A stretch of DNA of 64,000 nt from Bacteroidota bacterium (GTDB taxonomy: Bacteria; Bacteroidota; Bacteroidia; Chitinophagales; LD1): the NCBI GenBank assembly GCA_016722375.1, contig JADKJG010000008.1:33081-97080 (forward strand), given 5' to 3'. Below the pieces are notes generated by a model. The model was not told the origin of the DNA. It did no database searches and saw only the letters and a list, made by a program, of their open reading frames with translations. Of this stretch, positions 6,612 to 64,000 are shown one piece after another; positions within the stretch are counted from its first letter, which is position 1, and each line of letters opens with the position of its first letter. The position numbers and the translations under genes are program-made.

Positions 6612-6760
6612 CCTTAAGGAAAAGAAGGAATTCCTTAAAGGAAAGTCTCTTTTCCTTAAAGGAAAATTACTTTCTCTTAATGATTGATACACGATTCCTT
6701 AAAGGAAAGCCTCCGTTCTTTAAGGAATTGCAGGAATCTCTTAAGCAAAAAGGAGATTTG
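6612..6760. repeat. 21-bp phased degenerate tandem array (CCTTAA word)
   Basis: CCTTAA-like anchors start at 6612, 6633, 6654, 6675, 6697, 6718 and 6739. The array contains the palindromes TTCCTTAAGGAA and AAGGAATTCCTT. Confidence 0.8.
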
Positions 6761-7107
6761 CAGAAAGAATATCACTAAAACATATAGGGATTGAGCTTAT
6801 CTCTTAAAGAAATGATTCAACCCCGTAAGACAATATCAATAGATTTAGGGAAAAGCAAGAGAATAGAGATGGATGGTTGGGGGGAACAGTTGAAAACGGA
6901 AAACCGCATGACTTAACTTAATGGCTTTGCCTTTATGTGTCAATCAATTCAGCGGCAGAGAAAAAACAATTTGATTTTCTAAAGGGTATTATTCTGATTG
7001 GATTTATATAGCAAACCCGGTCTCAAATTTGATCGGTATATATTTAGTTTTAAAAAATGTTATAATCTCAAATGCTGCAAATTGCTTTCTAACTTCGCAC
7101 CCTGATA

Positions 7108-7560
7108 ATGACAGCGAAACGCAATTATTTTACTGGAGATAGTCAACCGGAGTTAGGGTTTAAGCTATTTTTAAAGTACTGTTCCATTGGCCTTTTGGTG
7201 TTTTTATTTTCAGTAGGACAGCGCTCTGCGTTTGCTAATAGTAGCACTGAAGAGTCCAACATAAAGATGGATTTAGGAGTGCTTTTGTCGGGACACTCTA
7301 TTAGTATCCTGAGTTCACCACTTCATCTGCCGTTTGAATCAACCCCGAATCCCCAACCTCAGTATGATCCCACTGAGAAGGATAGTGAAGATGATTTGGG
7401 TAGTGATTGTACTCTAGCTATAGGATGCCAGACACTGGAGGGGGTGTTAATCCCTCCTTCTGGAAGAATTGTATTTTCATTAGTAGTAGATTCTTTACAA
7501 AACCGATCCACGGTTCCTCTTTTCATACTCTACCATTCTTGGAAGAGTTTCCTCTCCTAA
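7108..7560 (+). CDS. hypothetical protein upstream of the RND operon
   Basis: 150-aa ORF with one hydrophobic segment (CSIGLLVFLFSVG). No recognisable family, so coding status is uncertain. Confidence 0.3.
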   Translation: MTAKRNYFTGDSQPELGFKLFLKYCSIGLLVFLFSVGQRSAFANSSTEESNIKMDLGVLLSGHSISILSSPLHLPFESTPNPQPQYDPTEKDSEDDLGSDCTLAIGCQTLEGVLIPPSGRIVFSLVVDSLQNRSTVPLFILYHSWKSFLS

Positions 7561-7687
7561 TTTTCTAATTCTCCAGAGATTGTTTTACATGGTACGCTCC
7601 ATGTATTTAATGATCTGTATAGTACTCTGCTATGTAGCAGAGACTGATGTTCTAATAAGTCTTTCGTCAAAACAAATCAAAAGTAAA

Positions 7688-8773
7688 ATGAAGAGTGTCG
7701 TAATGCTCCTGAGCCTTTCAACTATGTTGGTGTTCACAAGCTGTAATAATGAAAAACATATAAAGGAAGCAGAAGCTAAATTTCTGGTTACCAGTCCGGT
7801 TCAAATGGACACGATGATTTATCAGGATTACGTGTGCCAGATTCATGCCATCAGCCACATTGAAATAAGGTCGCAGGAAAGGGGTTACCTGCAGAACGTT
7901 TACGTGGACGAAGGACAGAATGTAAAAAAGGGACAGAAGATGTTTCAAATTATGCCTTTGATATACGAGGCAGAAATGGAAAAGGCAAAGGCCAATGTAA
8001 GTTTTGCTGAGATTGAATATCAGAATACCAAGAATCTTGCTGACAGCAACATCGTGTCGAAGAATGAATTGGCATTGGGTAAAGCAACATTAGATAAAGA
8101 GAAAGCAGAGTTGGCTCTGGCTCAGGCACATTTGGCATTTACAGATATACGCGCTCCCTTCGATGGCATCATGGACCGCTTTTATCAGCGACTGGGCAGT
8201 TTAGTAGATGAAGGTGAATTGCTCACCACTCTTTCAGATAACAGCAAAATGTGGGTGTACTTCAATGTCCCCGAATCGGAATATCTGGATTACGCTTCCC
8301 GCACCGCAAAAACAGGCAAGCAGCAGGTAAAGCTGCGTATGGCCAACGGTGAAATATTTTCACGCGAGGGAACGGTAGAAACGATAGAGGCGGACTTTAA
8401 CAATGAAACCGGAAACATTGCTTTCCGTGCCACTTTCTCTAATCCCGATAAAATCTTGCGACATGGAGAGACGGGCACCATACTGATGCCGACGCACCTT
8501 AAAAACGCCATCATCATTCCTCAAAAGGCAACTTTTGATATCCTAGATAAGAAGTTCGTTTATGTGCTGGATAACAACAACGTGTTGAAGTCAAAGCAAA
8601 TTACGATAGCTCAGGAAATGCCCCATCTATATGTAGTTAGCTCAGGCCTCGACGTTAACGACAAAATCCTTCTAGAAGGATTAGGCAAGGTAAAAAACAA
8701 TGAAAAAATAGAAACTGAGTTTGTGTCTTTTGAAAAGGCGTTATCCGACCTAAATAATTTACACGCCGAATAA
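7688..8773 (+). CDS. RND efflux periplasmic adaptor (membrane fusion protein)
   Basis: The likely start is the internal ATG at 7688, which gives a lipoprotein signal (MKSVVMLLSLSTMLVFTSC). HlyD/AcrA-like coiled-coil hairpin and beta-barrel regions (IRAPFDGIMDRF). Confidence 0.88.
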   Translation: MKSVVMLLSLSTMLVFTSCNNEKHIKEAEAKFLVTSPVQMDTMIYQDYVCQIHAISHIEIRSQERGYLQNVYVDEGQNVKKGQKMFQIMPLIYEAEMEKAKANVSFAEIEYQNTKNLADSNIVSKNELALGKATLDKEKAELALAQAHLAFTDIRAPFDGIMDRFYQRLGSLVDEGELLTTLSDNSKMWVYFNVPESEYLDYASRTAKTGKQQVKLRMANGEIFSREGTVETIEADFNNETGNIAFRATFSNPDKILRHGETGTILMPTHLKNAIIIPQKATFDILDKKFVYVLDNNNVLKSKQITIAQEMPHLYVVSSGLDVNDKILLEGLGKVKNNEKIETEFVSFEKALSDLNNLHAE

Positions 8774-8799
8774 GGCAAGAACCAAAAAACAAAGAAAAG

Positions 8800-13984: not shown

Positions 13985-14017
13985 AAACTACAAAAGTCTT
14001 AGAGACTTTTGTAGTTT
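13985..14017. other. perfect 15-bp stem hairpin
   Basis: AAACTACAAAAGTCT, a TAG loop, then AGACTTTTGTAGTTT. It lies in the ORF-free gap downstream of the minus-strand gene ending at 14092. Confidence 0.7.
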
Positions 14018-14091
14018 GAAGTTTACGCGCAGTGGGGGCTTTCGTTGGCTTTAGCTTTGACAAATTTAGAATTTGTCAGAGTTGGATGTCG

Positions 14092-15546
14092 CTATTCCAT
14101 CAGATACTTAACATCCTTAACAATAATCCAAGCATCTTCATCTGTAATTTCTTTATAGAATAATTTTTCATTAAAGTATCCAAACACGTTTATCTGTTTA
14201 TCTGAAATCATTACTTTCCTTTGTAAAATGTAAGATTGGGGAATATATTCAAAATAATAAGTTGGACCTTTGGAAAGACCCCCAACCATTATAACTTTTT
14301 CAATATTGGAATAAACAATGTCAATCCAATTACTTGACGGACTATTATTAAAATGAGTACTGTCAAGGCCTGTCAAACGGACGCTATTATGTTTATTGAA
14401 GAAATAAAGAGTTGGGTCAACGTTAAAAACAAAAAAAGGCTGGTTTATCATATACCCGAAATATCCAGTATACGCAATTCGATATTTTGAGCTACTATTC
14501 TTAATGGGAAAATAATCTGGGTAGCTTAAATTAAATACGTTCTCAAGTTTTAGCCCATCTTTTGTAAAGTAATATTGAGCAATTAAAGAATCATTATTCT
14601 CTGAACTTGTCATCATCAATAATGTATCACCTCGGACAAAAATAGTATTGAGATAATTAAAAACATTGCCACTTCCAGGAATTGAATAATGTAATGAATA
14701 TACCTTTTCAACAGTAAGGTCTAAACTTAATTGGGCTATATACGGAGCGTGATACCATCCTACATCCCCATTTGGACTTGCCTTTTCAATTAAAAACGTT
14801 AGAGGCAAATAAATTTTTTGGTTTTTAAAAATTGGCGGCATGATATTAACCCTATTACCCATTTTTGAATCTATTCGATCTGTTGCAAGAACGTTGCTTG
14901 CTTGCTCATTTGAGTCTAGCATTACACATTCTTTAATAAAAAGTTGAATGGAATCTCTTAGGAAGTTAAAGTTATATGTCTTAACTAATTTTCGTTTCTC
15001 AACATCTATACAATATGTATTTGAATTCAGGTCGTTTGTAATGTAGATGTAGCCGTCGTCTGCAAGATTAAATTTTGTTCGTTTCGTGCCAACGTATTTA
15101 CTTACATCAATGGTGTCATCAATAAAAGATGAAATAATATCCACAATAGTATCACCTACTAATGAATTTTTAAAATCAGAACTCCAAAGAATTTTTTCAT
15201 TTTTCAGAATAAATACCTTAGAAACTATCTCTGGGTTTAAACAAGAAAATAAACTGTCATTAATTATTACTGTATCAATAGGCGATATTTTGCCAATTTT
15301 AGTAGAGACAAATTCGGTCTTTATTCTTTTAGGCACATTTCCTAATAGGAATACTACAGGATACTTTCCATATAATTGTTGATAAGCATTCGATGCGCCT
15401 ATATAACAATTAAAGCAATCGTTACCATAAATAGTAAAAACTACGGATACTGGCTTTTCTTTTCTCAGATTGAAATCTAAGCAATCTGACTGTCCATAAA
15501 TTGAAAGACCAGTAACCAAAAAAAAATAAAAAAATACACTCCTCAT
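14092..15546 (-). CDS. secreted hypothetical protein: CxxC-containing N-terminal module plus beta-propeller-like body
   Basis: 484 aa with a signal peptide (MRSVFFYFFLVTGLSIYGQ) and VVFTIYGNDCFNCY (beta-strand then CxxC, thioredoxin-like). The remainder is beta-rich. The coding sequence is visibly AT-rich. Confidence 0.6.
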   Translation of the reverse strand: MRSVFFYFFLVTGLSIYGQSDCLDFNLRKEKPVSVVFTIYGNDCFNCYIGASNAYQQLYGKYPVVFLLGNVPKRIKTEFVSTKIGKISPIDTVIINDSLFSCLNPEIVSKVFILKNEKILWSSDFKNSLVGDTIVDIISSFIDDTIDVSKYVGTKRTKFNLADDGYIYITNDLNSNTYCIDVEKRKLVKTYNFNFLRDSIQLFIKECVMLDSNEQASNVLATDRIDSKMGNRVNIMPPIFKNQKIYLPLTFLIEKASPNGDVGWYHAPYIAQLSLDLTVEKVYSLHYSIPGSGNVFNYLNTIFVRGDTLLMMTSSENNDSLIAQYYFTKDGLKLENVFNLSYPDYFPIKNSSSKYRIAYTGYFGYMINQPFFVFNVDPTLYFFNKHNSVRLTGLDSTHFNNSPSSNWIDIVYSNIEKVIMVGGLSKGPTYYFEYIPQSYILQRKVMISDKQINVFGYFNEKLFYKEITDEDAWIIVKDVKYLME

Positions 15547-15557
15547 CAGAATAGATT

Positions 15558-16263
15558 TTATTCAGGGTGAATAATACTTGAAATAGCTTCCAAACTTGTT
15601 AGCCCACCCATAGATCCCCTAGGAATTTTTGCATAACGAATGCACCAACTGGGACTGGGTGTACATTGGATATAATAAAACTCGCTTCCCGGTTCATGAA
15701 CATAGCTGCTAAGGGTTCCATAAACTTGAATTTCTTGAGCAGGGCCATACAAACTTTTGTAATGATTATATTCAGTTTCTGTCATTGCTTGGTGATATAT
15801 TGTGTTGCGGAGAGAAATATAGCTATTAGCTGATTCAGGTACAGGATTATCAGATGCTACACTAACAGAAATAGATACATACCCTGTGTCTCCAATTAAA
15901 GATAAAAAGTCAGATGGGAAATTTGCTATCTGATTAATCTTAAAACAAATTTCTTTAGAAGGTAAGCATTCAATAATAACTGTTGCATCGCCAGGTCCTG
16001 ATATATTATTTAATCTGCCAGGGATATCAACAGGGGGTTGAAGCAATTCCTGCTTGACCGTCATTTAAAAATACGCCTGTTGATATAAGTGAGGTTCGTG
16101 TTGGGCACTGCTGCATAATATTACAAGCAGAATAATATGTTGTATTAATACTTGGCACGTAAACTTGTTGGACTATTTGTGACGCTCCGTCTTCTTCAAG
16201 CCCTTGTGCCTTTAATATTACAATCCCTAATAAGAATACGGAAATCAATGCTCTTGTTTTCAT
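15558..16263 (-). CDS. secreted Cys-containing hypothetical protein, split across two overlapping frames
   Basis: ORF 16027..16263 carries the signal peptide (MKTRALISVFLLGIVILKAQG). ORF 15558..16064 continues in another frame with a 38-nt overlap. This is either one frameshifted gene or two genes. Confidence 0.4.
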
Positions 16264-17072: not shown

Positions 17073-17128
17073 GTTAAATTGTGGTTTTTTGGTTAAAAAA
17101 TAGAGAATCGAGATGTTCTGAAAAGAGA

Positions 17129-17422
17129 GAATGAAGCATTCATTTTGAAGAATGAGTGATTCATTTTGAGAAATGCCGCGCCAATTTCGAAAATGGAGGC
17201 CTCCATTCCTGCTCGCGAGTTTCTCGCGAGTACTCGCGCGTTGCTCGCGAGCAGGAATGAGTGACTCATTCCTTGAAATGAGCGGCTCATTCTTGGAAAT
17301 GAAGCCTCGCCAAGCAGAAATGAAAGACCCGCAAGCACTCGCGGGACTCTCGCGAGGCCTCGCGAGAGTCCCGCGACCACTCGCGAGCGACTCATTCTTT
17401 GAAATGCGAAAGCTATTTCGTG
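17129..17422. repeat. 21-bp phased palindromic array (GAATGAG and CTCGCGA words)
   Basis: Fourteen consecutive exact 21-nt units. There is a 34-bp perfect palindrome at 17341-17374, and a 12-bp inverted repeat CCTGCTCGCGAG (17208-17219) with CTCGCGAGCAGG (17244-17255). Confidence 0.9.
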
Positions 17423-17825
17423 GAATAATTCAGCCGCAACAAGCAGCGAGCTACTGCATATTATAAAAGGGTATTGGGGGAGGAGGGCAGTTAAATGACC
17501 TACCTTAGCACCACGAGTAACCGGTGTTTCAGAGGGGGAAAAAGAATTTTTGTTTGTAGAAAAAACCATTTTGTGCAAATGAATTCCTTATGTATTCTAC
17601 AACGAAAATAATAGATAGAGCCAAACCTCCTAATATTTGTTAAGGGGAATTCAAGGTGATTTTTGTCAGGCTTTATGTTTTAATTATTTACCCCTGCGAG
17701 ATTAGATAAATGGGCAAGTATAGTTTCTGCCAGAGGTATTGGCATGACGACGGGATTTAAAAACCGCGATAGAGTAACCTTCGTAAAAAGTAGAGACCCA
17801 GTTCCGCAGGAACTGTCTTTTATTA

Positions 17826-21915: not shown

Positions 21916-22490
21916 CTATTTCACCTTATCTATTTCTTTGGAAAGCAACGCAAATATTTCTTCGATGGTTCCCTCACCGACAATTTGTTGTAATTTATGC
22001 TGGTTCCGATAAAAAGAGACCAACGGTTCTGTTTTGTTACGGTATTCAGCCACGCGATTTCGGACAATCTCCTCATTCTGATCATCTGCTCTGCCGGACG
22101 ATTGCCCTCTTTTCAGAATACGAGCAGTAAGCTCTTGCTCAGATACATATAAAGAGAGCACCAATTTAATCGGTGACTTATATTTTTTTAGCAGTTCATC
22201 CAGAGCTTCTGCCTGCTTGACCGTTCTGGGAAACCCATCGAATACAAAGCCTTTAGCCTGTTTGTTGCTACTAGTTTCGATTCAATCATTCCGATAACCA
22301 CTACATCAGGCACTAACGCGCCTTTGTCCATCAGGGTCTTTGCTTCTAATCCCAGATTGGTTTGTGCGGCGATTTCAGCCCGCAACATATCTCCCGTGGA
22401 AAGATGAATCAATCCATACTGTGAAATGATGTTCTCTGCTTGCGTTCCTTTGCCGCTCCCCGGGGGGCCGAATAAAATGATATTGAGCAT
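21916..22490 (-). pseudogene. adk: adenylate kinase interrupted by a frameshift near 22278 (possibly an assembly indel)
   Basis: The N-terminal ORF has the P-loop GPPGSGKGTQ. After MIES the sequence continues in another frame as ETSSNKQAKGFVFDGFPRTVKQAEALD, which joins the 21916..22164 ORF. Confidence 0.85.
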
Positions 22491-29321: not shown

Positions 29322-29765
29322 TTACTCAAATGATTGAATAAGATTGGAAGCCATTTTCATATTTGAGTTATAGCTGTCTAAATTGTCAATTTGAAAATTT
29401 TCACCATCCCAATTTTGTAAAATATTTCGGAGTTGTCCCAAGAAGGCGATCGATGAAACCGCAACGTAATGCCCTTTCACAACCTGACCAGCGCCAATCA
29501 ATTCCAGCTTGCTGATAATTTTTCTAATATCATCAAACGTTCTTCCATATTCGGCGAGCAAATGATTTGTGGGCCTGTCGTTAGCTAATAATGTCAGCAA
29601 TTGTTCAATATACACCTCTCGCTTATTTAAAGTCTTTCCTTGAGTCATACTTTTAATTGTTTGACTCAAAATTTCACTTTCGTCGAAATGCTTTCGATTG
29701 GATTCAGCAGCAATCTTGGATAAAAGTCTCGATTTTTTAAAGAAAAACATTAACGATCTTATCAT
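29322..29765 (-). CDS. hypothetical protein (island gene, downstream of the cyclase-like gene)
   Basis: 147-aa AT-rich ORF, predicted mostly helical. No TM segment, no signal peptide and no recognisable cNMP-binding motif. Confidence 0.5.
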   Translation of the reverse strand: MIRSLMFFFKKSRLLSKIAAESNRKHFDESEILSQTIKSMTQGKTLNKREVYIEQLLTLLANDRPTNHLLAEYGRTFDDIRKIISKLELIGAGQVVKGHYVAVSSIAFLGQLRNILQNWDGENFQIDNLDSYNSNMKMASNLIQSFE

Positions 29766-29913
29766 CTAATTAAGCATGTCCTATTAAATAGTATCTAATA
29801 CATCGAGGTTACACAAAATAAGAAAAATTGCAGGCCATTGTCGGTGACGTTTGCACTGCTATTGTTTTTTTAAACCTAAACGATACGCATGTATAAACTT
29901 CATTTTTCTATGA

Positions 29914-30750
29914 TTAAATTTTTTGAAAAGCGATTGTTCCAATTGTTTCTTTTGGTTTCGTTTTTTGATCGTTGAGATACCAAGTCAGAACATCCAAAAG
30001 CCATTCATATTTTTCTTTGGCGTGGGAGTCATTTTTAGCCTCCATTAACTTAATCTGAATTTTACAAAAGTTTATACCACGACTTACGAAACCTTTATAA
30101 ACCTGATCGGCATCAAGATTTTCGTAACCTATATTTAACTCCTTTTCAAAACCGGTTGGATTTAGAAAATACACCCCCTTTGTATCCATTAACAAGCTTT
30201 TGCTGATCGCCTTATTGACGAGATCACCTCGCAGCTGTAGATTATTTTTTACTTTTTCAATTAATGCTTCAGCAATTACTATCCTTGGGTAGATTGCTTT
30301 CTTAGTTTCTAACTCATAGGCATCTGCTAAGGCTGGAGAAAAAATCATTTTCTCATCAGAATAATCATCCCCAAAAGATATCCCGCCTCGGATTGGAAAT
30401 TCATTATCAAGCATTATAGAAAAATAGGCGCGAGCAAACAGAATGCAGTTTGTAAAGGCATCGCCAAAGGATAATTCTGAACCCTCCTGATATGAAAATG
30501 ATGCATAAAGATTGTCGGAAAATAATTTGTATGATGTATTTACTTCGAGTTTAGCCTGGTCCAGTGTATCCTTAAATAAATTAAGGGTATTTATTCCTTG
30601 ATCAAGAGCCTCTATTAATTTTTTTAAGGAGTAGTCACCTTCATGGACGGAGTTATCTAAAATGCTTTTGAAACCTAAAATGTCAGCGTGAAGAACTATA
30701 GCTTTCCGTAAAGCTCCCTTTGAGCCCATATATTTCCTTTTGATTATCAA
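29914..30750 (-). CDS. class III nucleotidyl cyclase-like (CHD fold) protein with an unknown C-terminal extension
   Basis: 278 aa. Ordered motifs are AIVLHADILGFKS (metal Asp, cf. F.DI.GFT), YKLFSDNLYASF (second Asp, cf. K.IGD..MA.F), FPIRGGISFGD (cf. RIGIH.G) and SPALADAYELE (cf. G..VN.A.R.E). Confidence 0.5.
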   Translation of the reverse strand: MIIKRKYMGSKGALRKAIVLHADILGFKSILDNSVHEGDYSLKKLIEALDQGINTLNLFKDTLDQAKLEVNTSYKLFSDNLYASFSYQEGSELSFGDAFTNCILFARAYFSIMLDNEFPIRGGISFGDDYSDEKMIFSPALADAYELETKKAIYPRIVIAEALIEKVKNNLQLRGDLVNKAISKSLLMDTKGVYFLNPTGFEKELNIGYENLDADQVYKGFVSRGINFCKIQIKLMEAKNDSHAKEKYEWLLDVLTWYLNDQKTKPKETIGTIAFQKI

Positions 30751-30803: not shown

Positions 30804-31350
30804 CCCCATTCGCCCCCAAATCAACGCGCTTCCACCAGCGCCAAACGCGTTTATGGCTCAGCTCAATGCGGTAATAGTAGAGATTTCGCCTTGGTTGGTG
30901 ATTACCTTTCCAATATTAATATAAGAACCAGCGCCTGTTTGCCGCAGGCAGGTCAACAACCATCTGTTTATTCCTGTTGGTGAAACCAACACCAACGGGG
31001 CGAAGAAAAATTACTTCCCATCCTGATTGATTGAGCCGCTGGTTTGATTAAAACAGCGGAGGTTTTGATTAGAAAAGCGGATGGTGTGATTGATAAAGCA
31101 AATGCTGTGATTAAGATAGCGGAAGATATGATTATGAATGCCGCTCTTATGATTAAGAAAGCGGCATTCTTGATTAATATAGCGAATGCTTTAATCACTA
31201 TAGCGGCTACTATGATCAAGATAGCGAAAGATGTAACCGATATAACGGCTGATTTGATTGATATAGCGGGGAAATTGATTAAGAATCGGGGGATTATTAT
31301 TGATATTCGGGGGAAAATGATTGATATTCCGGGGATTATTGTTGATAATC
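30804..31350. repeat. composite 21-bp phased array: ACGCG-word head, then the GATT word
   Basis: The head has ACGCG-like anchors at 30824, 30845 and 30866. GATT anchors then fall at 31025, 31046, 31067, 31088, 31109, 31130, 31151, 31172, 31193, 31214, 31235, 31256 and 31277, and after a 25+17 nt slip at 31319. Confidence 0.85.
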
Positions 31351-31526
31351 GTTTGTGGCAAAGGTGTTTATGAGCATAGTGCCCAAATTAGATAAAATAG
31401 AAAGTAGAGAGGAGATTTGACAACTTTCAAAAAGTTCTGCATCATTTCTTCCTTGATTTTAAGAAAGGCTCTTTCGGTTTTTTCATTTGCCTTTTCGCTG
31501 ATTCCGGATAAGTCAAAAATTATAAT

Positions 31527-31955
31527 TTAGGATTTAATGGTTTTAAGAGGGTTTTGACCCTTATCATGCAATTCCCCTATTTCATCTACTGTCAAATTTG
31601 AGATTCTTTCTACTTCCATTTTCTCATTCTCATCACAATCTATATGCCCAGCAAATACCTTGTTTTGTTTTATCCAATCGAGATGCCATGAATCTTCCCA
31701 ATACCTTGTGCAAATAGTGAAGTCAGTTGAATAATTTCTTTTTTCATCATAGAACAATCCATTCTCAACAAGTTCGTCAATATCAAATTCATCTGGATTC
31801 CATCTTGAAATGGAGAATATTTGATTATCCTCTTGATTGAAAGGCTCATTTTGGGTGATGTACTTTTCCCGGAACGCCTCAATTCCTCCAATATACTTGC
31901 TTGCTATCGCCTTCTTATCAACAACAAGATTTGAGGGGTGTAGGTAGATTGGCAT
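31527..31955 (-). CDS. hypothetical protein (island gene between the two arrays)
   Basis: 142-aa intact AT-rich ORF, acidic and Trp-rich (RYWEDSWHLDWIKQ). No family recognised. Confidence 0.5.
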   Translation of the reverse strand: MPIYLHPSNLVVDKKAIASKYIGGIEAFREKYITQNEPFNQEDNQIFSISRWNPDEFDIDELVENGLFYDEKRNYSTDFTICTRYWEDSWHLDWIKQNKVFAGHIDCDENEKMEVERISNLTVDEIGELHDKGQNPLKTIKS

Positions 31956-32056
31956 TTAGGGAATTTATTTTTTCTACTTCTGCGCTATTCTCAGCCGTGG
32001 TTGGCGTTTAGCATTCCATAAAAATAAAATTATTGCATACTTCACCAACCATCACA

Positions 32057-38424: not shown

Positions 38425-38668
38425 GGCGACCCCGAAAAGTGTTGTGGAAAAGCCCCTCAAAAAATGACAGTTAAATGACAATTCTAATTAGGTTTTTAGG
38501 ATAAATCGTCCGTATATTTGTGGTCAGTCTTGAAAACGAGAAAAACAAATTGGGAATAATTATGAACAAGCTAATATCAGGAGCGCCCGGCTTTAACAAC
38601 TCTTTAACATGTTTCATGAAAAAAGATATTTTTGACCGCTTTTGTCAGAGAGCAAATATCAATAGCTT

Positions 38669-41600
38669 ATGAAAAGAATACTTACGCTGCTTGGATTTTT
38701 GGCTGGTTTTTTTGTTGCCCATGCCCAGAATGGTGAAATATCCGGAAAGATTTTAGATGAAAACGGCGAAGGGATGATTTCTGCGAAGGTGGAAATTATT
38801 GATTCGAAAGGAGAGTTTACCGGTCGGGGAGCTATTACCGATTTTGATGGTAACTATGCTTTAAAGCCACTGACTCCCGGAAGGTATAACGTTCGTGTTT
38901 CGTTTATGGGATACAAAACCTATATTCAGTCAGGAATCATCGTGAACGCGGACAAGGCTACCTTCATTGATGTTAAACTGAGCTTGGTAGGAGTAGATAA
39001 AGATGCCGTAGAAATTATCGCTTATAAAAAGCCCCTGATTGATCCGGGTAATACTTCTGGAGGTGAGGTGGTCAGTTCAGAACAGATTAAGCAGAATGCC
39101 TCTAGAAATGTTTCAGACTTAGTGGCCTCAGGTGCCGGTATTGTGCAGTCCGACCAAGGAGGAGGCATCAACATTGGTGGACAAAGAGGTGAAGGAACGC
39201 AATATTATGTGGATGGAGTAAAGGTCATCGGTTCTCCCTCCCTCCCTGCCTCTTCTATTGAGCAGATTCAAGTGATCACCGGTGGTGTGCCGGCCAAGTA
39301 TGGTGATTTGACAGGAGGTATCATTAATATCACGACCAAAGGCCCATCGGGCACTTGGAATGGTGGCGCAGAATATCTCACCTCGCAGGGTTTGGATGCC
39401 GGAGGGTATAACTTGGTTAATGCCAACGTGACCGGCCCTATTTGGAAGGAAAAGAAAACCAAAAAGACGATTCTCGGTATTTTTCTTGCTGCCGAATATC
39501 TGGGACAGAAAGACGGAGACCCATCTGCTGTCGGAGTTTGGAAAATAAGACCTGATGTATTGGACTCGTTGCGGAGGTCACCACTTCAAAAGAAGTTGAC
39601 GGAAACAGGTTTCAATCTGAGTTCAGACAATATCACCTATAAGGATATGTATAAGGTGAAAACAAAGGATAATGTTTACTCGCATAATTTTAAAGGAAAT
39701 GCCCGTATTGATTTAAGGCCGGCGGACAATTTCACACTTTCCTTTGGCGGAACGGTTGCTCATAACCGATACCATTCTTGGGTAGAAGAATACCAACTGT
39801 TTAACACAGAAAACAATCCTTACTTCAAGGATATGAATTACCGAGTTTATGGAAGGTTCACACATACCATTCAATCCAAAACCTCCGACGATGATAAAAA
39901 GAAGGCATCGGCTTTTCAAAATGCCTATTACATGGTTCAGGTGGACTATGAAAAGTACTACCAAACTAATGGAGACGATTCGCATGGATTTAATGCCTTT
40001 GATTACGGTCATATTGGGAAATTTGAAACAAGGCGTTCACCCACTTTTGAGTTTAACACATTTGTAGATACGATTACCAATCAGAATTTTCGCGGGTTTA
40101 TACAGAATGGAAACGGCGACACTGCCGTATTATTTACGCCGGGCACATTGAATCCTTTCGGAACCAGATACACTCAGCAGTATTATGAGTTGTTGGGTGC
40201 CCAGCCAGACCAAAATGGTCGTTACGAGGTGTATGGAGACAACAATGCCAACTTTACCTCCAACTTAGACCAGATTCAGGCCAATCAGGCTTTAATCAAT
40301 GGAACTCGTTCCAATGTGGTCAACAATATTTGGTTCAATACCGGCAGACAATACAATGGTTTTGGCGTTGGAGCAGATAATGACCAGTACCGGGTTCGTT
40401 TAGAAGGTTCCTTTGATATTTTGAAGCCAGGATCGGCTTCCAGAAACAAACACAATTTTGAATTTGGTGTGGAGTATGAGCAACGTATTAACAGGTATTA
40501 CTCCGTTTCTCCGTTGGCTTTATGGCAGAGAGCAAGAGCCTTAGCCAATAAACACCTGACAGAATTGGATAGAGCTAACCCTGTTTTAAGAATCAATGGA
40601 GTTAATTACACCTATGATGACTTAAATCGCCCTAATTTTTATGTAACTGATACTATCTTATTTAATCGCCTTTATAAGGCTTCGGATCAGGCTTTCTTTG
40701 ATAAATCATTAAGAAAATCACTCCAGCTAGCTGAAAATGGAACAGATTGGATTGATGTGGATGCTTTGGATCCAAGCCAGTTGAATATCAAAATGTTCTC
40801 TCCCGAAGAGTTGTTGCAGGATGGAGCCTCTTTGGTCGGCTATCGCGGTTATGACCAATATGGAAACAAGTATAGCAAGCAGCCTTCTTGGAATGATTTC
40901 TTTACAAAGAGAAGAGCAGACGGCGAACTCGAAAGAGCAATTCCCGCCTTCCGTCCGGTATATGCCGCTGCCTATCTTTCTGACCGTTTCTATTTTAAAG
41001 ATCTGACCTTTAACGTTGGTGTGCGTGTTGACCGCTTTGATGCAAACGAAAAGGTGTTGAAAGATCCATACTCTTTATATCCAATTTACACGGCTTCGGA
41101 AGTAACCCGTATCGGGAACAACGACGTTTCGCACCCGGCCAATATCGGAAGCGACTATTATGTTTATGTAGATAATACAAAAGCTCAGGAACCTGGTTAT
41201 ATCACCGGTTACCGGAATGGAAATACTTGGTATGATCGTTTTGGTAATGAATTGGCCAGTGGCAACTCTTTGGCTTTAGCATCGGCTACAGGAAGTATTC
41301 AGCCCTACCTCAAAGGTCAGAGTCGGGATATAAAGGACCCGAACACGTTTGATCCCAACGGGACCTTTAAGGACTATACCCCTCAGATTGTGGTGATGCC
41401 TCGCTTGCAGTTCTCATTTAACTTGACAGACAAGGCTTTATTCTTTGCACACTATGATGTTCTTTCACAAAGACCTACCGGACAGGTAATCACGGATCCT
41501 ACCCAATGGCTTTACTTCGAAAACTCTGTAGGAGGAGTTTTCAATAACGCAGGACTAAAACCTGTCAAAACCATTGATTTTGAGTTAGGGTTTAAACAGG

Positions 41601-48850: not shown

Positions 48851-49031
48851 GAAATCCCCCCTTACAAAGCACTTCTCGCCCGTCCTGAAATAAATAGTAA
48901 CCGTTTGGGTCAAAACGCTCGGTATTAAATAGGCTTGAACATCATCCATACTTAACCGTATTTAAGTCCTTCTGATTACATCTCTTTCTCCATACCAGGC
49001 CAATCTGCACAAGACGAATGTGCCAGATTTT

Positions 49032-49344
49032 TAATCCGTTTTTGCGGCAGGCTTGGTTATTTCATCAACAGGCTTGACTATTCCTGCGGCTGACTTCCCT
49101 ATTTTCGTGGTGAATTGTCCTATTTCTCTAACAGACTTCCCTATTTTCATGGCAGAATGTCCTATTCCCATCGTCAAATTACCTATTTCCGTGACGGACT
49201 TAGGTGTTTCTGCAACGGACTTAGGTATTTCTGCGGTGGACTTCCCTATTTTCGTGGCGACTTGTCCTATTTCTGTCACGGACTTGCCTAATTCCGTCGC
49301 GGTTTTGCCTCATTCTGCGACAGAATGAGTCTGTGTATTTGCGG
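49032..49344. repeat. 313-bp element: 21-bp phased array (CCTATTTC word) with conserved ends
   Basis: Anchors fall every 21 bp from 49056 to 49308 (CCTATT at 49098, 49119, 49140, 49161, 49182 and so on). It is collinear with 63683-63995 at a constant offset of 14651. Confidence 0.92.
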
Positions 49345-49574
49345 AAAATCAACTAATTAACAGAGAAATGCGAAAAAACGGCATGTTATTGCCATTTGTC
49401 TTCATATTTAATGGGGAATTAGAAGACGGCAAAACTATATACGTAATGCAGTCTATCCATCATGGATATTTGGTATAGGATAGAGGGAATTCTATTATTG
49501 ATAAATGTCAGAGTTCTTTGTAAGGGATATGCGTTGTGCCACTGACCCAAAAACAAGGGTGCATTAAAGTATGA

Positions 49575-49710: not shown

Positions 49711-49920
49711 ATGTTAGTCAAGAATTTTGGAGAAACCATAAAAATCAGGCGAAAGGAGTTGGGCATTACTCAGCCCCACTTAGCTGAGTTGGCAAAAGTG
49801 AGCACCAACACTTTGTATAAATTAGAGCGGGGACAAGGCAATCCTTCATTAGATGTATTGAACAAATTAGCAGAAGTATTGGGGATGGAGCTGGTTATGG
49901 AAGTGAAAAGGGTAAAGTGA
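49711..49920 (+). CDS. hipB: XRE-family HTH regulator (HipB-like)
   Basis: 69 aa: IKIRRKELGITQPHLAELAKVSTNTLYKLERGQGNPSLDVL. Confidence 0.85.
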   Translation: MLVKNFGETIKIRRKELGITQPHLAELAKVSTNTLYKLERGQGNPSLDVLNKLAEVLGMELVMEVKRVK

Positions 49921-50047
49921 AAAATCAAAGGTGATGGCGAAATTAATTCTAAAGAGTTAATTGCCATGCTAGTGTATTCTATTAAATCAACCAAACAAAA
50001 TCTAAAATGAATTTCACTTTTCACTTTTCACTTTTCGTTTTTCATTT

Positions 50048-50377
50048 ATGAGAATAGTGGAGATATACCGCAACGGAACTTTGGCTGGAACACTGACAGA
50101 AGAAAATCGTCAGCATTTTGTGTTCAGGTATGATGACAATTATTTTAATGATTCAGACAAACCGGCTATCAGTTTAACGCTTCCAAAAACACAAAAAGAA
50201 TATAGCAGCAAATTTCTTTTTCCATTTTTCTTTAATATGCTTAGTGAAGGGGTAAACAGGAAATTACAAAGCACACAACTGAGGATTGATGAAGAGGATA
50301 ATTTTGGTTTGCTGGCTGCAACCGCCCAATATGATACGATAGGAGCCGTAACTGTAAAACCAATAGAGGCAAAATGA
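50048..50377 (+). CDS. hipS: HipA N-terminal-subdomain protein (HipS-like)
   Basis: 109 aa: GTLAGTLTEE..FVFRYDDNY, PFFFNMLSEG, IGAVTV. The stop overlaps the next start (ATGA). Confidence 0.8.
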   Translation: MRIVEIYRNGTLAGTLTEENRQHFVFRYDDNYFNDSDKPAISLTLPKTQKEYSSKFLFPFFFNMLSEGVNRKLQSTQLRIDEEDNFGLLAATAQYDTIGAVTVKPIEAK

Positions 50378-51381
50378 ATTTGGATGAATTGAAATATTGT
50401 CCCGGAACTTTGGCTGAAGGTTTTACTACTTACAGCCCGGGTTGCTTACGGAATATGTTTAATGGTAAAAAGGTAAATCATGTTTTGCCATATGAACAAC
50501 CACAGCAAAGCGAAGAGGTTGCGGAGCAGTTCATGGAAAATCGCAAACGCATATCCATATCGGGTGTGCAAGAAAAATTGAGTTTGCTTCTTGAAAAAAA
50601 TCTATTGCGTTTGACAAAAGAAGGAGAACAGGGAACCTACATACTCAAACCAATACCAAAAGATTTAAAGAAGGTTGATAAGGTTCCGGCTAACGAACAC
50701 CTAACCATGCAAATAGCAAAACAGGTTTATGGATTGAATACTGCAGAAAGTGCTATGGTTTTTTTCAAAAATGGTTCGCCTGCCTACATCACCAAAAGAT
50801 TTGATGTAAAGGGAGATGGCAGCAAATGGGGCAAGGAAGATTTTGCAACACTTGCCGGTAAAACAAAAGACAATGCCGGAGCAAACTTCAAATATGAATA
50901 CAGTTACGAAGAGCTTGGGCAACTGATACAAAAATTTGTTCCGGCATGGCGGGTAGAAATTGAGAAGTATTTTTCATTGGTAGTTTTCAATTTTTTGTTT
51001 TCAAATAGCGATGCTCACTTAAAAAATTTCTCTTTGCTTGAATCATCCAAAGGCGATTACTTGCTTAGTCCTGCGTATGATTTAGTAAATACTAAACTGC
51101 ATGTGGACGATTCAGACTTTGCTTTGGATAAAGGATTATTTTTGGATAGCTTTAAAAGTGAGCGATATAAAAAAAACGGGCACCCTGCTAAAACTGATTT
51201 CAAGAAATTTGCCAAACGAATAGGAGTTGCCGAAACCAGGGTAGAAAAATTGCTGAATCCGTTTTTAGAAAAGCAATCTTTAATGGAAACCTTAGTTAGC
51301 CGTTCATTTTTAAGCGATGCCAACAAGAGAGGATACTTACTGATGTATATCACAAAAAGGAACTACCTGACCGCAGATTAA
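50374..51381 (+). CDS. hipT: HipA-family Ser/Thr kinase lacking N-subdomain 1 (HipT-like toxin)
   Basis: 335 aa: ISISGVQEKLSL (Gly-rich loop region), catalytic SDAHLKNFSLL, LSPAYDLVNT. Confidence 0.85.
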   Translation: MNLDELKYCPGTLAEGFTTYSPGCLRNMFNGKKVNHVLPYEQPQQSEEVAEQFMENRKRISISGVQEKLSLLLEKNLLRLTKEGEQGTYILKPIPKDLKKVDKVPANEHLTMQIAKQVYGLNTAESAMVFFKNGSPAYITKRFDVKGDGSKWGKEDFATLAGKTKDNAGANFKYEYSYEELGQLIQKFVPAWRVEIEKYFSLVVFNFLFSNSDAHLKNFSLLESSKGDYLLSPAYDLVNTKLHVDDSDFALDKGLFLDSFKSERYKKNGHPAKTDFKKFAKRIGVAETRVEKLLNPFLEKQSLMETLVSRSFLSDANKRGYLLMYITKRNYLTAD

Positions 51382-59396: not shown

Positions 59397-59432
59397 ATTG
59401 ACCTAAACCAACGAAGTTAGGAGACCACAGCC

Positions 59433-61977
59433 TTAGCTATCAGAACCCGGTTGCGACTCTGCCTTCTTCTTTGGTACTTTGTGTGTAATCTTAAGTTCGT
59501 TGCCTTCCTTATTCAGATCCACCATGAAAATATCACCCTGCTTGGCGTTAGAGCGAAGAATTTCTTCTGCCAATGGATCTTCCACATATTTCTGAATAGC
59601 GCGATGAAGCGGACGAGCCCCAAACTGGGGATCGTAACCTTTGTCAGAAAGAAAGTCTTTGGCTTCGTTCGTCAATTTAATATCAAAGCCAAGTTCCTTA
59701 ATTCTTTTCGTTACGTCTGATAGAGCGATGTCAATAATCTTGTGTAAGGAATCCTTCTCTAACGAATTAAATATGATGATATCATCAATCCGGTTCAGAA
59801 ACTCGGGAGAAAAAGTTCTTTTCAAAGCCTTTGTAATTACGTTCTTGGCGAAGTCGTCTGTTTGATCTGTTTTGGACTTTGTGGCAAAACCCACTCCCTG
59901 ACCAAAATCCTTCAAATCACGAGCCCCGATATTTGACGTCATGATGATGAGTGTGTTTTTGAAATCTACCTTTCTTCCCAAACTATCCGTCAAGATTCCA
60001 TCGTCGAATACCTGCAACAGAATATTAAATACATCCGGGTGTGCTTTTTCAATTTCATCCAATAACACCACGCTATATGGTTTGCGACGAACTTTTTCTG
60101 TCAGTTGTCCACCTTCCTCATAGCCCACGTATCCCGGAGGAGCGCCTACTAAACGCGAAATGGAAAACTTCTCCATGTACTCACTCATATCAATCCGCAC
60201 CAGCGAATCTTCAGAATCGAATAAGAAGCGGGCAATGGCTTTAGCTAACTCTGTTTTTCCAACGCCTGTAGGGCCTAAGAAAATAAAAGTACCAATAGGC
60301 TTTCTAGGGTCTTTCAGACCTACGCGGTTTCTTTGAATGGCTTTGGTCACCTTCATCACTGCTTCGTTCTGACCTACCACCGCACCGGTGATTTCCGCGC
60401 TCATATTTATTAGCTTGTTGCTTTCGCTCTGCGCTATTTTACTTACCGGAATACCGGTCATCATGCCTACCACCTCTGCAATATCTTCTTCGTTGACCGG
60501 AAAGCGTTTCACCTTGGCTTCTTCATCCCATTCCGATTTTGCTTTTTCCAAATCTTCTAACAACCGCTTTTCACTATCACGCAAGCGGGCAGCCTCTTCA
60601 TACTTCTGGCTTTTCACCACCTGGTTTTTGGTTCTTAATATCCTCTACCTGCTTTTCCAGGTCAATAATATTTTTGGGAACGTGAATGTTTTTCAGGTGT
60701 ACTCTGGCACCCACTTCATCCATCACATCAATAGCTTTGTCGGGCAGAAACCGGTCCGTTATATACCGCGTAGAAAGTTTCACGCAGGCCTCGATAGCTG
60801 TTTTTGAATAGTCAACATTATGATACTCTTCGTACTTGGATTTAATATTTGTCAGAATCTGAATTGTCTCTTCCGGTGAAGGCGGGTCTACCATTACCTG
60901 CTGAAAACGACGAGCCAAGGCTCCATCCTTTTCTATATACTGACGATATTCGTCCAACGTAGAAGCACCAATACATTGTAGTTCACCTCTTGCCAGCGCC
61001 GGTTTAAAAATATTAGACGCATCTAAAGAACCGGTGGCACCACCCGCTCCGACGATGGTATGGATTTCATCAATAAATAAAATGACATCGCGATTCTTTT
61101 CCAATTCGTTCATGATGGCTTTCATGCGCTCTTCGAACTGACCGCGATATTTCGTTCCGGCCACCAAAGCAGCCAGATCAAGCATCACAATTCTTTTATT
61201 GAATAGAACCCTCGAAACTTTTTTCTGCATAATGCGCAAGGCAAGACCTTCTACAATCGCAGTTTTACCAACGCCCGGTTCACCAATCAAAATAGGGTTA
61301 TTCTTTTTTCTGCGCGATAGAATTTGTGATACGCGCTCAATTTCATTTTCACGTCCTACAATCGGATCCAGTGCGCCTTCTTCTGCTAGATGGGTTACAT
61401 CTCTGCCGAAATTATCAAGCACCGGTGTTTTGGATTTAGTGCCTCCCGATTTTTTTGCTTGCTGCGCATAACTCTTCCCCTTTTCTTCTTCAAATGGTTC
61501 GTCCTCACCGGGATCGCTTGGTAGCTCTGCCCTTATATCGCCTTGAACGGTATCCAGTTCTGACTTAAATACTTCATAATCTATATCAAACTGAGCGAGC
61601 AGTTGAGTCACCAGATTATCCTTGCTTTTCAAAATAGAGAGCATCAGATGTTCCGTGCCTATCACATCACTCTTCATCACTTTCGCTTCCAGCACGGTAA
61701 TCTTCAATACCTTCTCCGCCTGTTTCGTCAACGGCAGATTATTTGGATTGAAGTTCCCCTTGGCCACTTTCTCCTTGATCCTATCTTCAATTTTCTTCCG
61801 CAACATCACCGGATCAATATCTAACGTTCTCAATGTTTTGATGGCTAACCCTTCTCCTTCGCGGATTAGGCCGAGCACCAAATGCTCAATGCCAATGTAG
61901 TCGTGATTCAAGCGCAGTGCCTCTTCGCGGCTATACGAAATAACCTCTTTTACCTTCGGTGAAAATTTTGCTTCCAT
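59433..61977 (-). pseudogene. clpC: ClpC-type AAA+ chaperone split by a frameshift at an A5 run (60625-60629); possibly an assembly indel
   Basis: The N-terminal ORF has Clp_N repeats and AAA1 (GEPGVGKT). The C-terminal ORF has a UVR-like segment (KYEEAARLRDSEKRL) and AAA2 (GPTGVGKT). The frames overlap at 60598-60620. The likely true start is the ATG at 61977. Confidence 0.9.
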
Positions 61978-62304
61978 AGTTTCCTTTTGTTCAATAATCA
62001 AGCCAATTGCTGATTCTCTTTATAATCAGACGTTTTGTCGTTTTTTTAATTTTCTATTCCTCGTCAAACCTAAGTGAATTCTATGTAATAGACAAAGAAT
62101 TTGTTTTGCAGTGATGGACGGTACAAGAACAATCTGTATAAAAATACATAATCTCAACAGACTAGGTTTTGAATAGATATTCTTATTTTAACCAAATATT
62201 TTGAAAAGAGCAATTTATAATACACCTTCGCGTGCCGATAGGGCAAAAACAAATCTTCATTATTAACGTATATTTGGGGGCATCTTTAAAGAAACAAATC
62301 AAGT

Positions 62305-62673
62305 ATGAAATTTCAAGTTGACAAAAGAGATCGTTTGGTAATCGTGAAACTCAATGAAGAAAAGCTATTGAGTAATTTGGCGCCACAACTGAAATCCGAA
62401 TTGGTGATTCTCAATAATGAAGGGTTCAGAAATATTGTGCTTGATTTATCCGATGTACAGTATGTGGACTCCTCCGGCTTGAGTGCCTTGTTGGTAGGCA
62501 ACCGTCTTTGCAAAGAAGCCTCCGGCACTTTTGTATTGACTGGTCTAAATCCCCATATACAAAAGCTGATAAAAATATCTCAACTTGAGCCGATATTAAA
62601 CATCGTTCCCTCCTTGACCGAGTCGGTTGATTATGTGATGATGGAAGAACTGGATCGCGACCTGCGCACCTAA
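62305..62673 (+). CDS. STAS-domain anti-sigma-factor antagonist
   Basis: 122 aa: LDLSDVQYVDSSGLSALL. Confidence 0.85.
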   Translation: MKFQVDKRDRLVIVKLNEEKLLSNLAPQLKSELVILNNEGFRNIVLDLSDVQYVDSSGLSALLVGNRLCKEASGTFVLTGLNPHIQKLIKISQLEPILNIVPSLTESVDYVMMEELDRDLRT

Positions 62674-62688
62674 TACGTCTTATTCCTG

Positions 62689-63606
62689 ATGATTTTTGAA
62701 GTGACAATCTTGGGCAGCAACGGTGCTGTTCCGGCTTATGATCGTCATCCCTCTGCACAGATTGTAAACCATAATGGAAACATCTTCCTCGTGGATTGCG
62801 GCGAAACGACGCAGTTCCAGATGAACCGGTATGGCATAAAAAGAGGAAAGTTAGACCACATCTTTATTTCACATCTCCATGGCGACCATTACTTCGGACT
62901 AATTGGCTTAATCACTAGCTTCAGCCTTCACTGGAGAGAAAACCCGCTGCATATATACGCACCGGCAGGCCTGGAAGACATTATTAATGTCCAACTGAAA
63001 TATTCAAATACCGAGCTGCGTTTTGATATTTACTTCCATGCCTTGAACGCCGATGCCCCACGGATTATTTACGAGGATGAACAACTGACCGTTGAAACTA
63101 TTATTCTGAAACACCGGCTGCCCACCACCGGTTTTCTTTTTAAGGAAAAAAAGCATTTGCGCCATATTATCCCCGAGAAAATAGCTCAACACGATGTACC
63201 GCACCACCAGATTTCGGATATTAAAAAAGGGGCCGACTACCAACATCCCGATGGGAGAACTATTCCTAATGTCGAACTCACCCGCGAACCTTCTCCGGCC
63301 AGGAGCTATGCGTATTGCAGCGATACGGCCTACACAACAACTATCGCTGAGCAGCTTCAGGGAGTGAACCTACTTTATCATGAAGCTACTTTTATGGAAG
63401 GAGATGCCACTCGCGCCGAAGAAACCTTTCACTCCACGTGCAAACAAGCCGCACAAATGGCTCGGCTGGCTAATGCTGGCCGCCTACTCATCGGTCACTT
63501 CTCTGCCCGCTATAGCGACCTCAGCGTTTTGCTGGAAGAAAGTCGCAGCGTTTTCCCCAACACTTTTCTGGCAGAAGAAGGAAAGATTTTCAACGTGGGT
63601 AGCTAA
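62689..63606 (+). CDS. rnz: ribonuclease Z
   Basis: 305 aa with the metallo-beta-lactamase motif SHLHGDHYFGL. Confidence 0.92.
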   Translation: MIFEVTILGSNGAVPAYDRHPSAQIVNHNGNIFLVDCGETTQFQMNRYGIKRGKLDHIFISHLHGDHYFGLIGLITSFSLHWRENPLHIYAPAGLEDIINVQLKYSNTELRFDIYFHALNADAPRIIYEDEQLTVETIILKHRLPTTGFLFKEKKHLRHIIPEKIAQHDVPHHQISDIKKGADYQHPDGRTIPNVELTREPSPARSYAYCSDTAYTTTIAEQLQGVNLLYHEATFMEGDATRAEETFHSTCKQAAQMARLANAGRLLIGHFSARYSDLSVLLEESRSVFPNTFLAEEGKIFNVGS

Positions 63607-63682
63607 ATAGATACGGGCTACAACCGTCCTCATTTCCGGCTCCATTATATATAAGACATTCTCTGCTATTGAATCAAAACTT

Positions 63683-64000
63683 TAACCTGTTTTTCCGGCA
63701 GGTTTGTCTCTACCCGCAATAAACCAGACTATTTTTACGGCAGACTTGCCTATTTCTGATACAGATTTCCCTATTTCCACGGCGAGTTTGCCTATTTCCA
63801 TCTCAGAAATAGCTATTTCCGTCGCAGACTTCCCTATTTCCGGGACAGACTTACCTATTTCTGCGCCGGACTTAGGTATTTCTGAGATGGACTTCCCTAA
63901 TTCTATGATGGACTTCCATATTTTCGTCACGGACTTGCCTATTTCTGCCGCGGTTTTGCCTATTTCTGTGACAAAAACAGTCTGGATATTTGCGAAAAAA
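63683..64000. repeat. second copy of the 313-bp CCTATTTC-word element, reaching the window edge
   Basis: Anchors fall every 21 bp from 63728 to 63959. Both ends match the 49032-49344 copy. Confidence 0.92.

Follow-up and report, generated by a model that had tools for sequence, protein, structure and literature searches.

Tandem direct repeats that recur at about two turns of the DNA helix are known from plasmids, where the 22-bp iterons of R6K and the 19-bp iterons of P1 and F follow this spacing and the centromere-like sopC locus of F is built from 43-bp repeats. Bacterial chromosomes hold interspersed minisatellites, such as the mycobacterial interspersed repetitive units (MIRU) of Mycobacterium and the BOX elements of Streptococcus pneumoniae (boxA-(boxB)n-boxC). 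Here, we describe arrays of degenerate 21-bp units that occupy most long intergenic gaps in a 64,000-bp stretch of DNA (hereafter, the window) from a Bacteroidota bacterium of the order Chitinophagales (GenBank assembly GCA_016722375.1, contig JADKJG010000008.1, positions 33,081 to 97,080). The spacing of these units is conserved, while their sequence drifts almost freely. The window is ordinary chromosome, with ribosomal protein genes, an operon for an AcrAB-TolC-type efflux system, fabH, obg, pyk, ligA, rpoB, rpoC, greA, a HIT gene (protein MBL0310468.1 at NCBI), hipBA, psd and clpB; its RpoB protein is at most 68% identical to that of any GTDB species representative, the nearest being Chitinophagales metagenome-assembled genomes. 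The arrays are numbered 1 to 6 in the order of their position (Table 1).

Comparison with described repeat families

Like the arrays described here, plasmid iterons are non-coding tandem direct repeats (~17-22 or ~43 bp) that are arranged in helical phase, often contain a short dyad and have a sequence specific to their replicon. The arrays have iteron spacing, with a period of exactly 21 bp and, in array 2, a half-period of 10/11 nt. Iterons, however, occur in 3-12 copies, usually on a plasmid and beside a gene whose product, a Rep or partition protein, binds to them, whereas the arrays comprise 7-18 units, and at least six of them lie within 64 kb of chromosome among housekeeping genes. The ORF scans of the window revealed neither a Rep nor a partition gene, and BLAST searches of the arrays against plasmid and phage collections gave no match. 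MIRU and BOX elements resemble the arrays in their intergenic units of tens of bp, their leader-units-tail build, their dispersed loci and their changes in copy number by whole units; they differ in that each forms a single genome-wide unit family, with periods of ~45-77 bp that obey no common rule, while the units here are mostly private to one array and the period is nearly always a multiple of 21 bp (21n). Tentatively, we regard the arrays as most like plasmid iterons in geometry; in lifestyle they resemble MIRU/BOX minisatellites.

[quoted passage not shown] REP sequences belong to one or a few conserved families of 35-40 nt, alternate in orientation and are linked to RAYT transposases. 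Like the arrays, REP/BIME elements are clusters of extragenic palindromic units in gaps between genes or cistrons, but the units here run head-to-tail, are specific to their array, strictly periodic and palindromic in about half of the arrays. An assignment to REP/BIME was rejected on account of this head-to-tail order and the absence of a genome-wide consensus, only pairwise paralogies being present in the window. CRISPR arrays consist of direct repeats of 23-55 bp with unique spacers of similar length, and cas genes are common although not obligatory. A CRISPR identity was rejected as well: the units are contiguous 21-mers without unique spacers, their variable part is 6-12 nt long and semi-conserved, and Pfam, NCBIfam and PADLOC scans of the open reading frames (ORFs) of the window contained no Cas family. 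The predicted lack of both cas and transposase genes thus holds among the window ORFs scanned, and PADLOC and NCBIfam returned nothing for the flanking ORFs without an assigned family.

LytTR-type response regulators bind pairs of 9-bp direct repeats separated by a spacer of 12-13 bp, which gives a period of 21-22 bp. As in the arrays, a conserved core of ~9-13 bp and a variable spacer add up to 21 bp, and paralogous regulators read different cores; LytTR sites, however, hold 2-3 repeats, compared with 7-18 here. LytTR proteins are usually encoded near their sites. This lead was rejected, as no LytTR gene was found among the ORFs scanned in the window and beside the arrays checked in relatives, and the literature searched lent it no support. 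Tandem TAACTGA heptamers have been reported from Beggiatoaceae, cyanobacteria and five Bacteroidetes (PMC4679880). Such STRR/TAACTGA repeats are, like the arrays, intergenic, tandem and patchily distributed, Bacteroidetes included, but they are built from a 7-nt unit with one dominant sequence, whereas the arrays have neither a 7-nt sub-period nor a word in common. With no lag-7 or lag-14 tracts in the window and no 7-nt harmonic inside the units, this candidate was rejected too. A full-text search of one paper library found no description of 21n arrays, the heptamer paper being the nearest, a result that is not proof of novelty.

The 21-bp period in the window and in related genomes

Tandem Repeats Finder (TRF) reported arrays of period 21 or 42 at every location named in the original prediction. 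When the entire window was scanned for matches at each lag between 1 and 69 (sliding segments of 105 nt, threshold 50% matches), 1091 positions were positive at lag 21, 805 at lag 42 and 628 at lag 63, with none at lags 20 and 22 and a stray few at lags 1, 24, 43 and 64. Lags 21, 42 and 63, the peaks that had been anticipated for an autocorrelation analysis, are the only ones that form tracts; these lie at 6356-6760, 17112-17438, 30978-31402, 32045-32434, 49019-49353 and 63675-64000. Stacking of the units confirmed that anchor words recur at exact 21-bp spacing, for example CCTATT at 49098/49119 onward and GATT from 31046. One tract, described earlier as running from 30804 to 31350, does contain array 3 but is not continuous, since about 150 non-periodic bases separate this array from a distinct three-unit fragment (30813-30873). 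Within units, sub-periods of 3, 3.5, 4.2, 5.25, 7 and 10.5 nt showed no enrichment. The arrays had also been said to fill most long intergenic gaps: of the eight gaps that exceed 600 bp, six contain an array and one more (36483-37417) contains a decayed remnant. The 21-bp arrays are genuine and non-random, far beyond what chance would produce.

The comparison set amounted to 544 kb, comprising the window and 23 loci of Chitinophagales-like relatives (labelled L0xx), in which TRF clusters of at least 80 bp were counted. A period of 21, 42, 63 or 84 bp was found in 16 of the 17 clusters, the lone exception having a period of 36 bp, and most of the clusters carry a private unit sequence. In viral loci, which served as a rough control, tandem repeats other than those at 21 nt were spread over ~35 further periods between 7 and 147 bp; because these loci had been chosen by a 21-nt-spaced pattern (ACTTCC at 21-nt spacing), their own excess of 21-nt repeats carries no meaning. 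The uniformity of the clusters, set beside the varied viral periods, shows that the 21n rule belongs to the lineage and not to a single genome.

Conservation of spacing and drift of sequence

An exact register is held over 10-18 units in arrays whose units have a mean pairwise identity of 0.40-0.68, or 0.90 in the youngest array; the extremes are L016 (0.90) on the one side and array 2 and L004 (~0.40) on the other. Each array had been credited with a vocabulary of its own. This is right for most units, which do differ, but it fails for arrays 5 and 6, for the element at 6336-6600 and its paralogue at 36978-37240, and for several unit families that occur in more than one species. In all, three paralogue pairs lie within the 64 kb, and most arrays are unique.

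Arrays 5 and 6 align without a gap at 71% identity, with 91 substitutions and 0 insertions or deletions (indels) over 318 nt. In their variable columns, matching units are 67% identical, compared with 37% for non-matching units, a pattern which shows that a whole, already diversified array was copied; since the duplication, the motif columns have retained an identity of 0.76 and the variable columns 0.67. The elements at 6336-6600 and 36978-37240 are 66% identical over 146 nt (blastn, E = 2.5e-14), and in a MAFFT alignment they differ by exactly one 21-nt unit. If bacterial non-coding DNA accumulates roughly one indel per 10-40 substitutions, arrays 5 and 6 should differ by 2-9 indels, and the chance of finding zero would be ~0.0001 to 0.1. 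The lack of indels in this pair and the one-unit difference in the other together indicate that whole-unit changes are tolerated and that changes out of register are rare. Hence, the spacing of the arrays is conserved, while their sequence drifts almost freely.

A possible scaffold locked to two helical turns

Since spacing is conserved and sequence hardly so, the working property of the arrays is probably geometric. Twenty-one is the smallest whole number of bp that matches the helical repeat of 10.5 bp, and what is kept would then be a series of sites, often dyads, that face the same side of the DNA. Tentatively, we interpret the arrays as non-coding minisatellites that are locked to two turns of the helix and probably serve, in an iteron-like manner, as a scaffold for protein binding. 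An array would be born by tandem amplification in situ of a short seed, often a dyad-symmetric one, and some arrays would later be copied whole into other intergenic gaps; the units would then diverge by point mutation, with selection purging changes in spacing. Equivalent short sites would in this way come to lie on one helix face every two turns, and their most likely use would be to carry one or several cooperative DNA-binding proteins, as on plasmid iterons. The original prediction had already placed any bound factor on a single face of the DNA, which remains the best available explanation; we infer both the helical phasing and the protein binding from the geometry.

A number of observations weigh against this scaffold interpretation. 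No binding protein or other reader has been identified, and units that differ so much between arrays would call for many specific readers, or else for a single tolerant one. The motif columns of arrays 5 and 6 are barely better kept than the variable ones, so that selection on the sites themselves must be weak. A 10.5-nt sub-period is not consistently present within the units of the various arrays, and the predicted intrinsic curvature (calculated with a wedge model) is high in three of the six window arrays (6, 5 and 2; top ~1%) and unremarkable in arrays 1, 3 and 4, for which reason curvature was rejected as a general explanation. L028, the closest relative sampled (HIT protein 80% identical), has no arrays in 20 kb, and one Bacteroidales species and a further Chitinophagales-like species likewise have none in their loci; the arrays are not universal within the lineage and are thus dispensable. 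Finally, a repeat of seven codons accounts equally well for a 21n period. It is the missing binding protein, the weak conservation of the sites and this shared prediction of the period that keep our assessment tentative. Whether the arrays represent an undescribed class of chromosomal elements, helical-phase-locked minisatellites in which selection acts on the 21-bp spacing and not on the sequence, we consider possible but on balance doubtful.

Gain, loss and dispersal among relatives

The rpoB loci of the nearest Chitinophagales relatives also hold degenerate arrays, with other units. The block rpoB-rpoC-PorV-like-GreA-HIT is kept in nearly all relatives sampled, and arrays with different units occupy different places around it. 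They lie shortly after the HIT gene in the window (array 5), in L002 (with a 42-nt unit) and in L032 (a short array); in L021 an array lies 1.1 kb further downstream of HIT, and in L012 one is placed between GreA and HIT. Most relatives have a short gap and no array at the HIT-downstream position. Similar units recur across species at unrelated loci (L016/L002b, identical at 17 of 21 positions; L004/L022, at 16 of 21), and the units of L021 and L032 have ACTTCnnTnATCGG in common. The arrays are gained and lost sporadically, and some are copied to other sites.

Such a history is also what would be expected of selfish or neutral minisatellites without a function for the host. A mutational or mobile-element process peculiar to the lineage and with a built-in step of ~21 bp would generate them, for instance through a recombinase or transposase whose recognition sites are separated by two helical turns, and they would then decay. 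We consider this explanation unlikely, although it accommodates much of the evidence: besides the sporadic occurrence among relatives and the unit families common to species at different loci, it fits the dispersed paralogue pairs, the composite arrays with more than one vocabulary that fill several gaps of the window, the almost neutral decay of the motif columns and the range of unit identities from 90% down to 40%, which resembles a cycle in which arrays are born and decay. In the window, genes that lack a Pfam or NCBIfam family adjoin the arrays beyond expectation (5 of 9, against 6 of 42; Fisher p = 0.015), and the HIT-downstream site is a break in gene order. Neutral decay, however, should bring in indels and destroy the register, yet old arrays are still in phase. 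Transposases, recombinases and reverse transcriptases are absent among the window ORFs scanned, terminal inverted repeats and target duplications were not identified, and the explanation demands a process with a 21-bp step, of which we know none.

Several further observations concern the same loci. The hipB-hipA(N)-hipA(C) toxin-antitoxin module (49711-51381) lies just downstream of array 5, where relatives carry quite different genes. A threonine-aldolase-like gene (37417-38669) precedes rpoB. In the relatives, the 10 kb upstream of rpoB contain no homologue of any gene that precedes rpoB in the window; gene order thus also breaks just upstream of rpoB. Gene pairs that enclose an array are tandem, convergent or divergent, with no rule of orientation. 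Array 4 and the 42-nt array in L002 share the end motif AGCCGATT...GCGGGGCTTYCTTTTT; in the form AGCCGATT-N-CCnGCGGGGCTTYCTTTTT (window 32396-32430; L002 6876-6925), it follows unrelated units in two species whose RpoB proteins are 68% identical. A metagenome scan for this end motif (AGCCGATT...GCGGGGCTTYCTTTT) yielded three unrelated GC-rich matches and no family.

The hexamer GGAAGT/ACTTCC is the most widely shared among the arrays, with at least three copies in 5 of 18. It concerns arrays at window 49032-49344 and 63683-64000, L002 20339-20470, L015 5463-5700, L016 6991-7465 and L008 9182-9475, and the related ACTTC is present in L021 and L032. Suggestive as it is of a common core, it was rejected as such, since by our own estimate its frequency is not significant once paralogy and the 2080 hexamers tested are taken into account; a viral scan for ACTTCC at 21-nt spacing produced at least 120 unrelated matches and was uninformative on the arrays. 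Tandem runs of heptamers (GACGATA, TAATGAG, GTTAGCG) occur in some relatives (L003 3205-3240 and 3360-3395; L010 3748-3772; L012 303-380). In L012, an inverted set of CTAATnn follows the first heptamer run, and pairing between the two is possible if G-U pairs are allowed. These runs are a separate, STRR-like phenomenon.

Dyad symmetry, folding and a possible role as RNA

Dyad symmetry was assessed against a null that preserves the tandem structure, in which the columns of the units were permuted (40 permutations per array). In 8 of 19 arrays, both strands were more self-complementary than every one of the 40 controls; 2 more arrays surpassed the controls on a single strand, and the rest showed no excess. 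Being found in about half of the arrays, dyads are a common but not a defining property. Relative to dinucleotide shuffles, the fold of array 1 has z = -5.5, and relative to column permutation z = -6.3; the corresponding values for array 2 are -8.2 and -7.4. Two vocabularies with the same architecture are interleaved in array 2, one reading GGAATGAG-TGA-CTCATTCC plus a linker and the other consisting of the 8-mer palindrome CTCGCGAG at alternating 11- and 10-nt steps; the alternation of CTCGCGAG averages 10.5 bp, that is, one helical turn.

These palindromes could alternatively work in RNA, as strings of hairpins transcribed in 3' untranslated and intercistronic regions or as stand-alone small RNAs, which would stabilise or terminate transcripts or titrate an RNA-binding factor in the manner of REP/BIME or BOX elements. 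All five window arrays that were folded beat dinucleotide shuffles (z -2.5 to -8.2), and about half of the arrays also beat the column-permuted null. The units of arrays 1 and 2 form a stem of 7-8 bp, a 3-nt loop and a short linker; array 5 closes, downstream of HIT, with a unit that is a terminator-like hairpin, and the L012 array separates two genes, GreA and HIT, that are ~10-40 nt apart in most other relatives. We nevertheless think it rather unlikely that the arrays act as RNA. Roughly half of them lack excess structure, self-complementarity is about equal on both strands, and the arrays have no consistent orientation relative to the flanking genes. By our own tally, the small stem of arrays 5 and 6 (TCYG-N3-CRGA) shows no covariation of Y and R, and a string of hairpins has no need of an exact 21-nt spacing. 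There is also no matching Rfam family: tRNA-Phe alone reached the gathering score in the window, and permissive scans of four array regions gave weak matches far below the gathering scores, mostly to families of miRNAs, small RNAs and cis-regulatory elements.

Some units carry small local inversions (TACCTA to TAGGTA, AGCGGC to GCCGCT), which yield inverted repeats between adjacent units. In some units of arrays 5 and 6, the CC-to-GG change (TACCTA to TAGGTA; window 49181-49205) creates a longer, interrupted hairpin with the neighbouring unit; this change is older than the duplication that made arrays 5 and 6. In our view, the local inversions may have arisen by templated mutation within quasi-palindromes.

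Protein-coding potential

A 21-nt unit equals seven codons, and the arrays, or some of them, might encode small heptad-repeat, coiled-coil-like peptides. According to the original prediction, each array can be read in one frame or more as a heptad with hydrophobic residues at 3/4 spacing. This observation finds no support as a sign of coding: any 21-nt repeat is translated into 7-residue repeats in all six frames, so that 3/4 spacing of hydrophobic residues in some frame is expected by chance, no frame is under purifying selection, arrays 4 and 5 are broken, and true homologues are lacking. The stop-free ORFs on both strands, in turn, follow from the repetition itself, as had been proposed, since stop codons are often absent from a unit of seven codons.

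What speaks for heptad peptides, apart from the exact period of 21, 42, 63 or 84 bp that they predict, is that a single frame is fully open in several arrays (e.g., 17093-17578 (-), 31044-31373 (+), L008 and L016), that divergence without indels would also result from maintenance of a reading frame, and that the translation of array 4 has sub-threshold matches to the ZapB and LPP coiled coils. The codon-usage score is gene-like for arrays 3, 5 and 6, and the range for real genes includes the values of array 3 (+0.35) and array 6 (+0.18); the units, however, are not mutually independent, and both strands are often open and score alike. The ratio of nonsynonymous to synonymous differences (pN/pS) between arrays 5 and 6 is 0.58-1.03 over the six frames and 0.83 in the SVTEIGK frame. 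Within 14 arrays it ranges from 0.44 to 2.0 over all frames and from 0.52 to 1.31 in the open frames, which are no better than the others. A test for period-3 composition had almost no power on 21-nt units, as judged by a positive control, and was therefore not used against coding.

The frames themselves are frequently interrupted. Only about one array in two is spanned by an ORF. There is no such ORF in L004, the arrays of L015 and L020 are closed by stops in each of the six frames, and many arrays lack a start codon. Substitutions have placed in-frame stops in array 5 where array 6 is open. Array 4 is interrupted by a 22-nt unit, which causes a +1 slip, and by a TGA. In array 2, the alternating 10- and 11-nt steps put the same CTCGCGAG into two reading frames, which makes no sense for a protein. 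Arguments based on reading frames call for caution in this window, because adk (21916-22490 (-)) and clpB (59433-62001 (-)) are each split into two ORFs, the break in clpB lying at an A-run (CAAAAACC); these splits indicate either that the assembly carries homopolymer indel errors or that the two genes are pseudogenes. Array 4, however, is base-for-base identical, slip included, in the separately assembled Logan contig L001 (SRR30574938), so that its interruption can be taken as real despite the indel errors elsewhere.

Searches for related proteins were equally unsupportive. For the peptide of array 6, 5.8 billion proteins yielded no homologue. The ORF of array 3 (31044-31373), the most gene-like one, retrieved only unrelated low-complexity xDxxGxx repeat proteins in an exhaustive HMMER search, and Pfam gave only sub-threshold coiled-coil matches. 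None of nine array ORFs exists as a protein record, in contrast to the HIT protein next to them. The arrays are non-coding tandem repeats without constraint at the protein level, and a set of small heptad peptides is accordingly an improbable explanation for them.

Individual arrays and their surroundings

The arrays and array-derived sequences of the window are listed in Table 1.

Table 1. Tandem arrays and their remnants in the window.
Feature	Position	Strand	Units and architecture	Further features
Weakly periodic array in ~260-nt element	6336-6600		CAAAC...TTT units, five at 6403-6507	Lag-21 signal
Array 1	6612-6760		~7 units; palindrome CTTTCCT-TAA-AGGAAAG and 4-nt linker	+1 slip near 6697
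Array 2	17112-17438		14 in-register units	Two interleaved vocabularies of one architecture
Fragment of array 4 leader	30813-30873	+	Three units	88.5% identity over 61 nt to 32068-32128
Array 3	31032-31352		15 in-register units xTGATTxAxAxAGCGGxxxx	One unit with inverted core GCCGCT for AGCGGC
Array 4	32057-32434	+	Leader, 4 units, +1 slip with TGA, 10 units; core AACGCGCTT	End AGCCGATT...CCCCGCGGGGCTTCCTTTTT
Decayed array remnant	36978-37240			Paralogue of 6336-6600
Array 5	49030-49350		15 units GACTTnCCTATTTCnnnnnnn	181 nt downstream of HIT gene
Array 6	63681-64000			Unit-by-unit paralogue of array 5; truncated by window end

Array 3 and a family-less gene for a 142-aa protein (31527-31955) are bracketed by two 61-nt direct repeats that are 88% identical (30813-30873 and 32068-32128), near a tRNA-Phe gene (32594-32667); the enclosed segment looks like a duplicated or inserted cassette. 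Two family-less ORFs follow ligA (29322-30750 (-)), for which Pfam, NCBIfam and PADLOC gave nothing. One of them, 278 aa in length, carries an N-terminal HADILGFKS motif that we take to be reminiscent of class III nucleotidyl cyclases. A stretch of low GC content (14001-16100; 0.325 compared with ~0.43) contains two further family-less ORFs (14092-15546 and 15558-16064) and may be acquired DNA.

Biological implications

On a practical level, the arrays yield spurious coiled-coil ORFs on both strands, which gene callers and structure predictors may mistake for proteins, and they are likely trouble spots for assembly and strain typing. If they do form a class of their own in which selection acts on spacing, an unknown protein or machine specific to this clade of Chitinophagales-like Bacteroidota would read or write arbitrary short sites at a spacing of two helical turns. 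Should the 21n rule hold genome-wide, a sizeable share of the intergenic DNA in a widespread group of environmental bacteria, the Chitinophagales-like lineages from activated sludge and freshwater, would follow one geometric template, an organisation for which no counterpart has been described in bacterial chromosomes. Such an organisation would imply that an activity which reads or writes DNA awaits discovery in these bacteria, and would provide a natural system for the study of selection on helical phasing alone.

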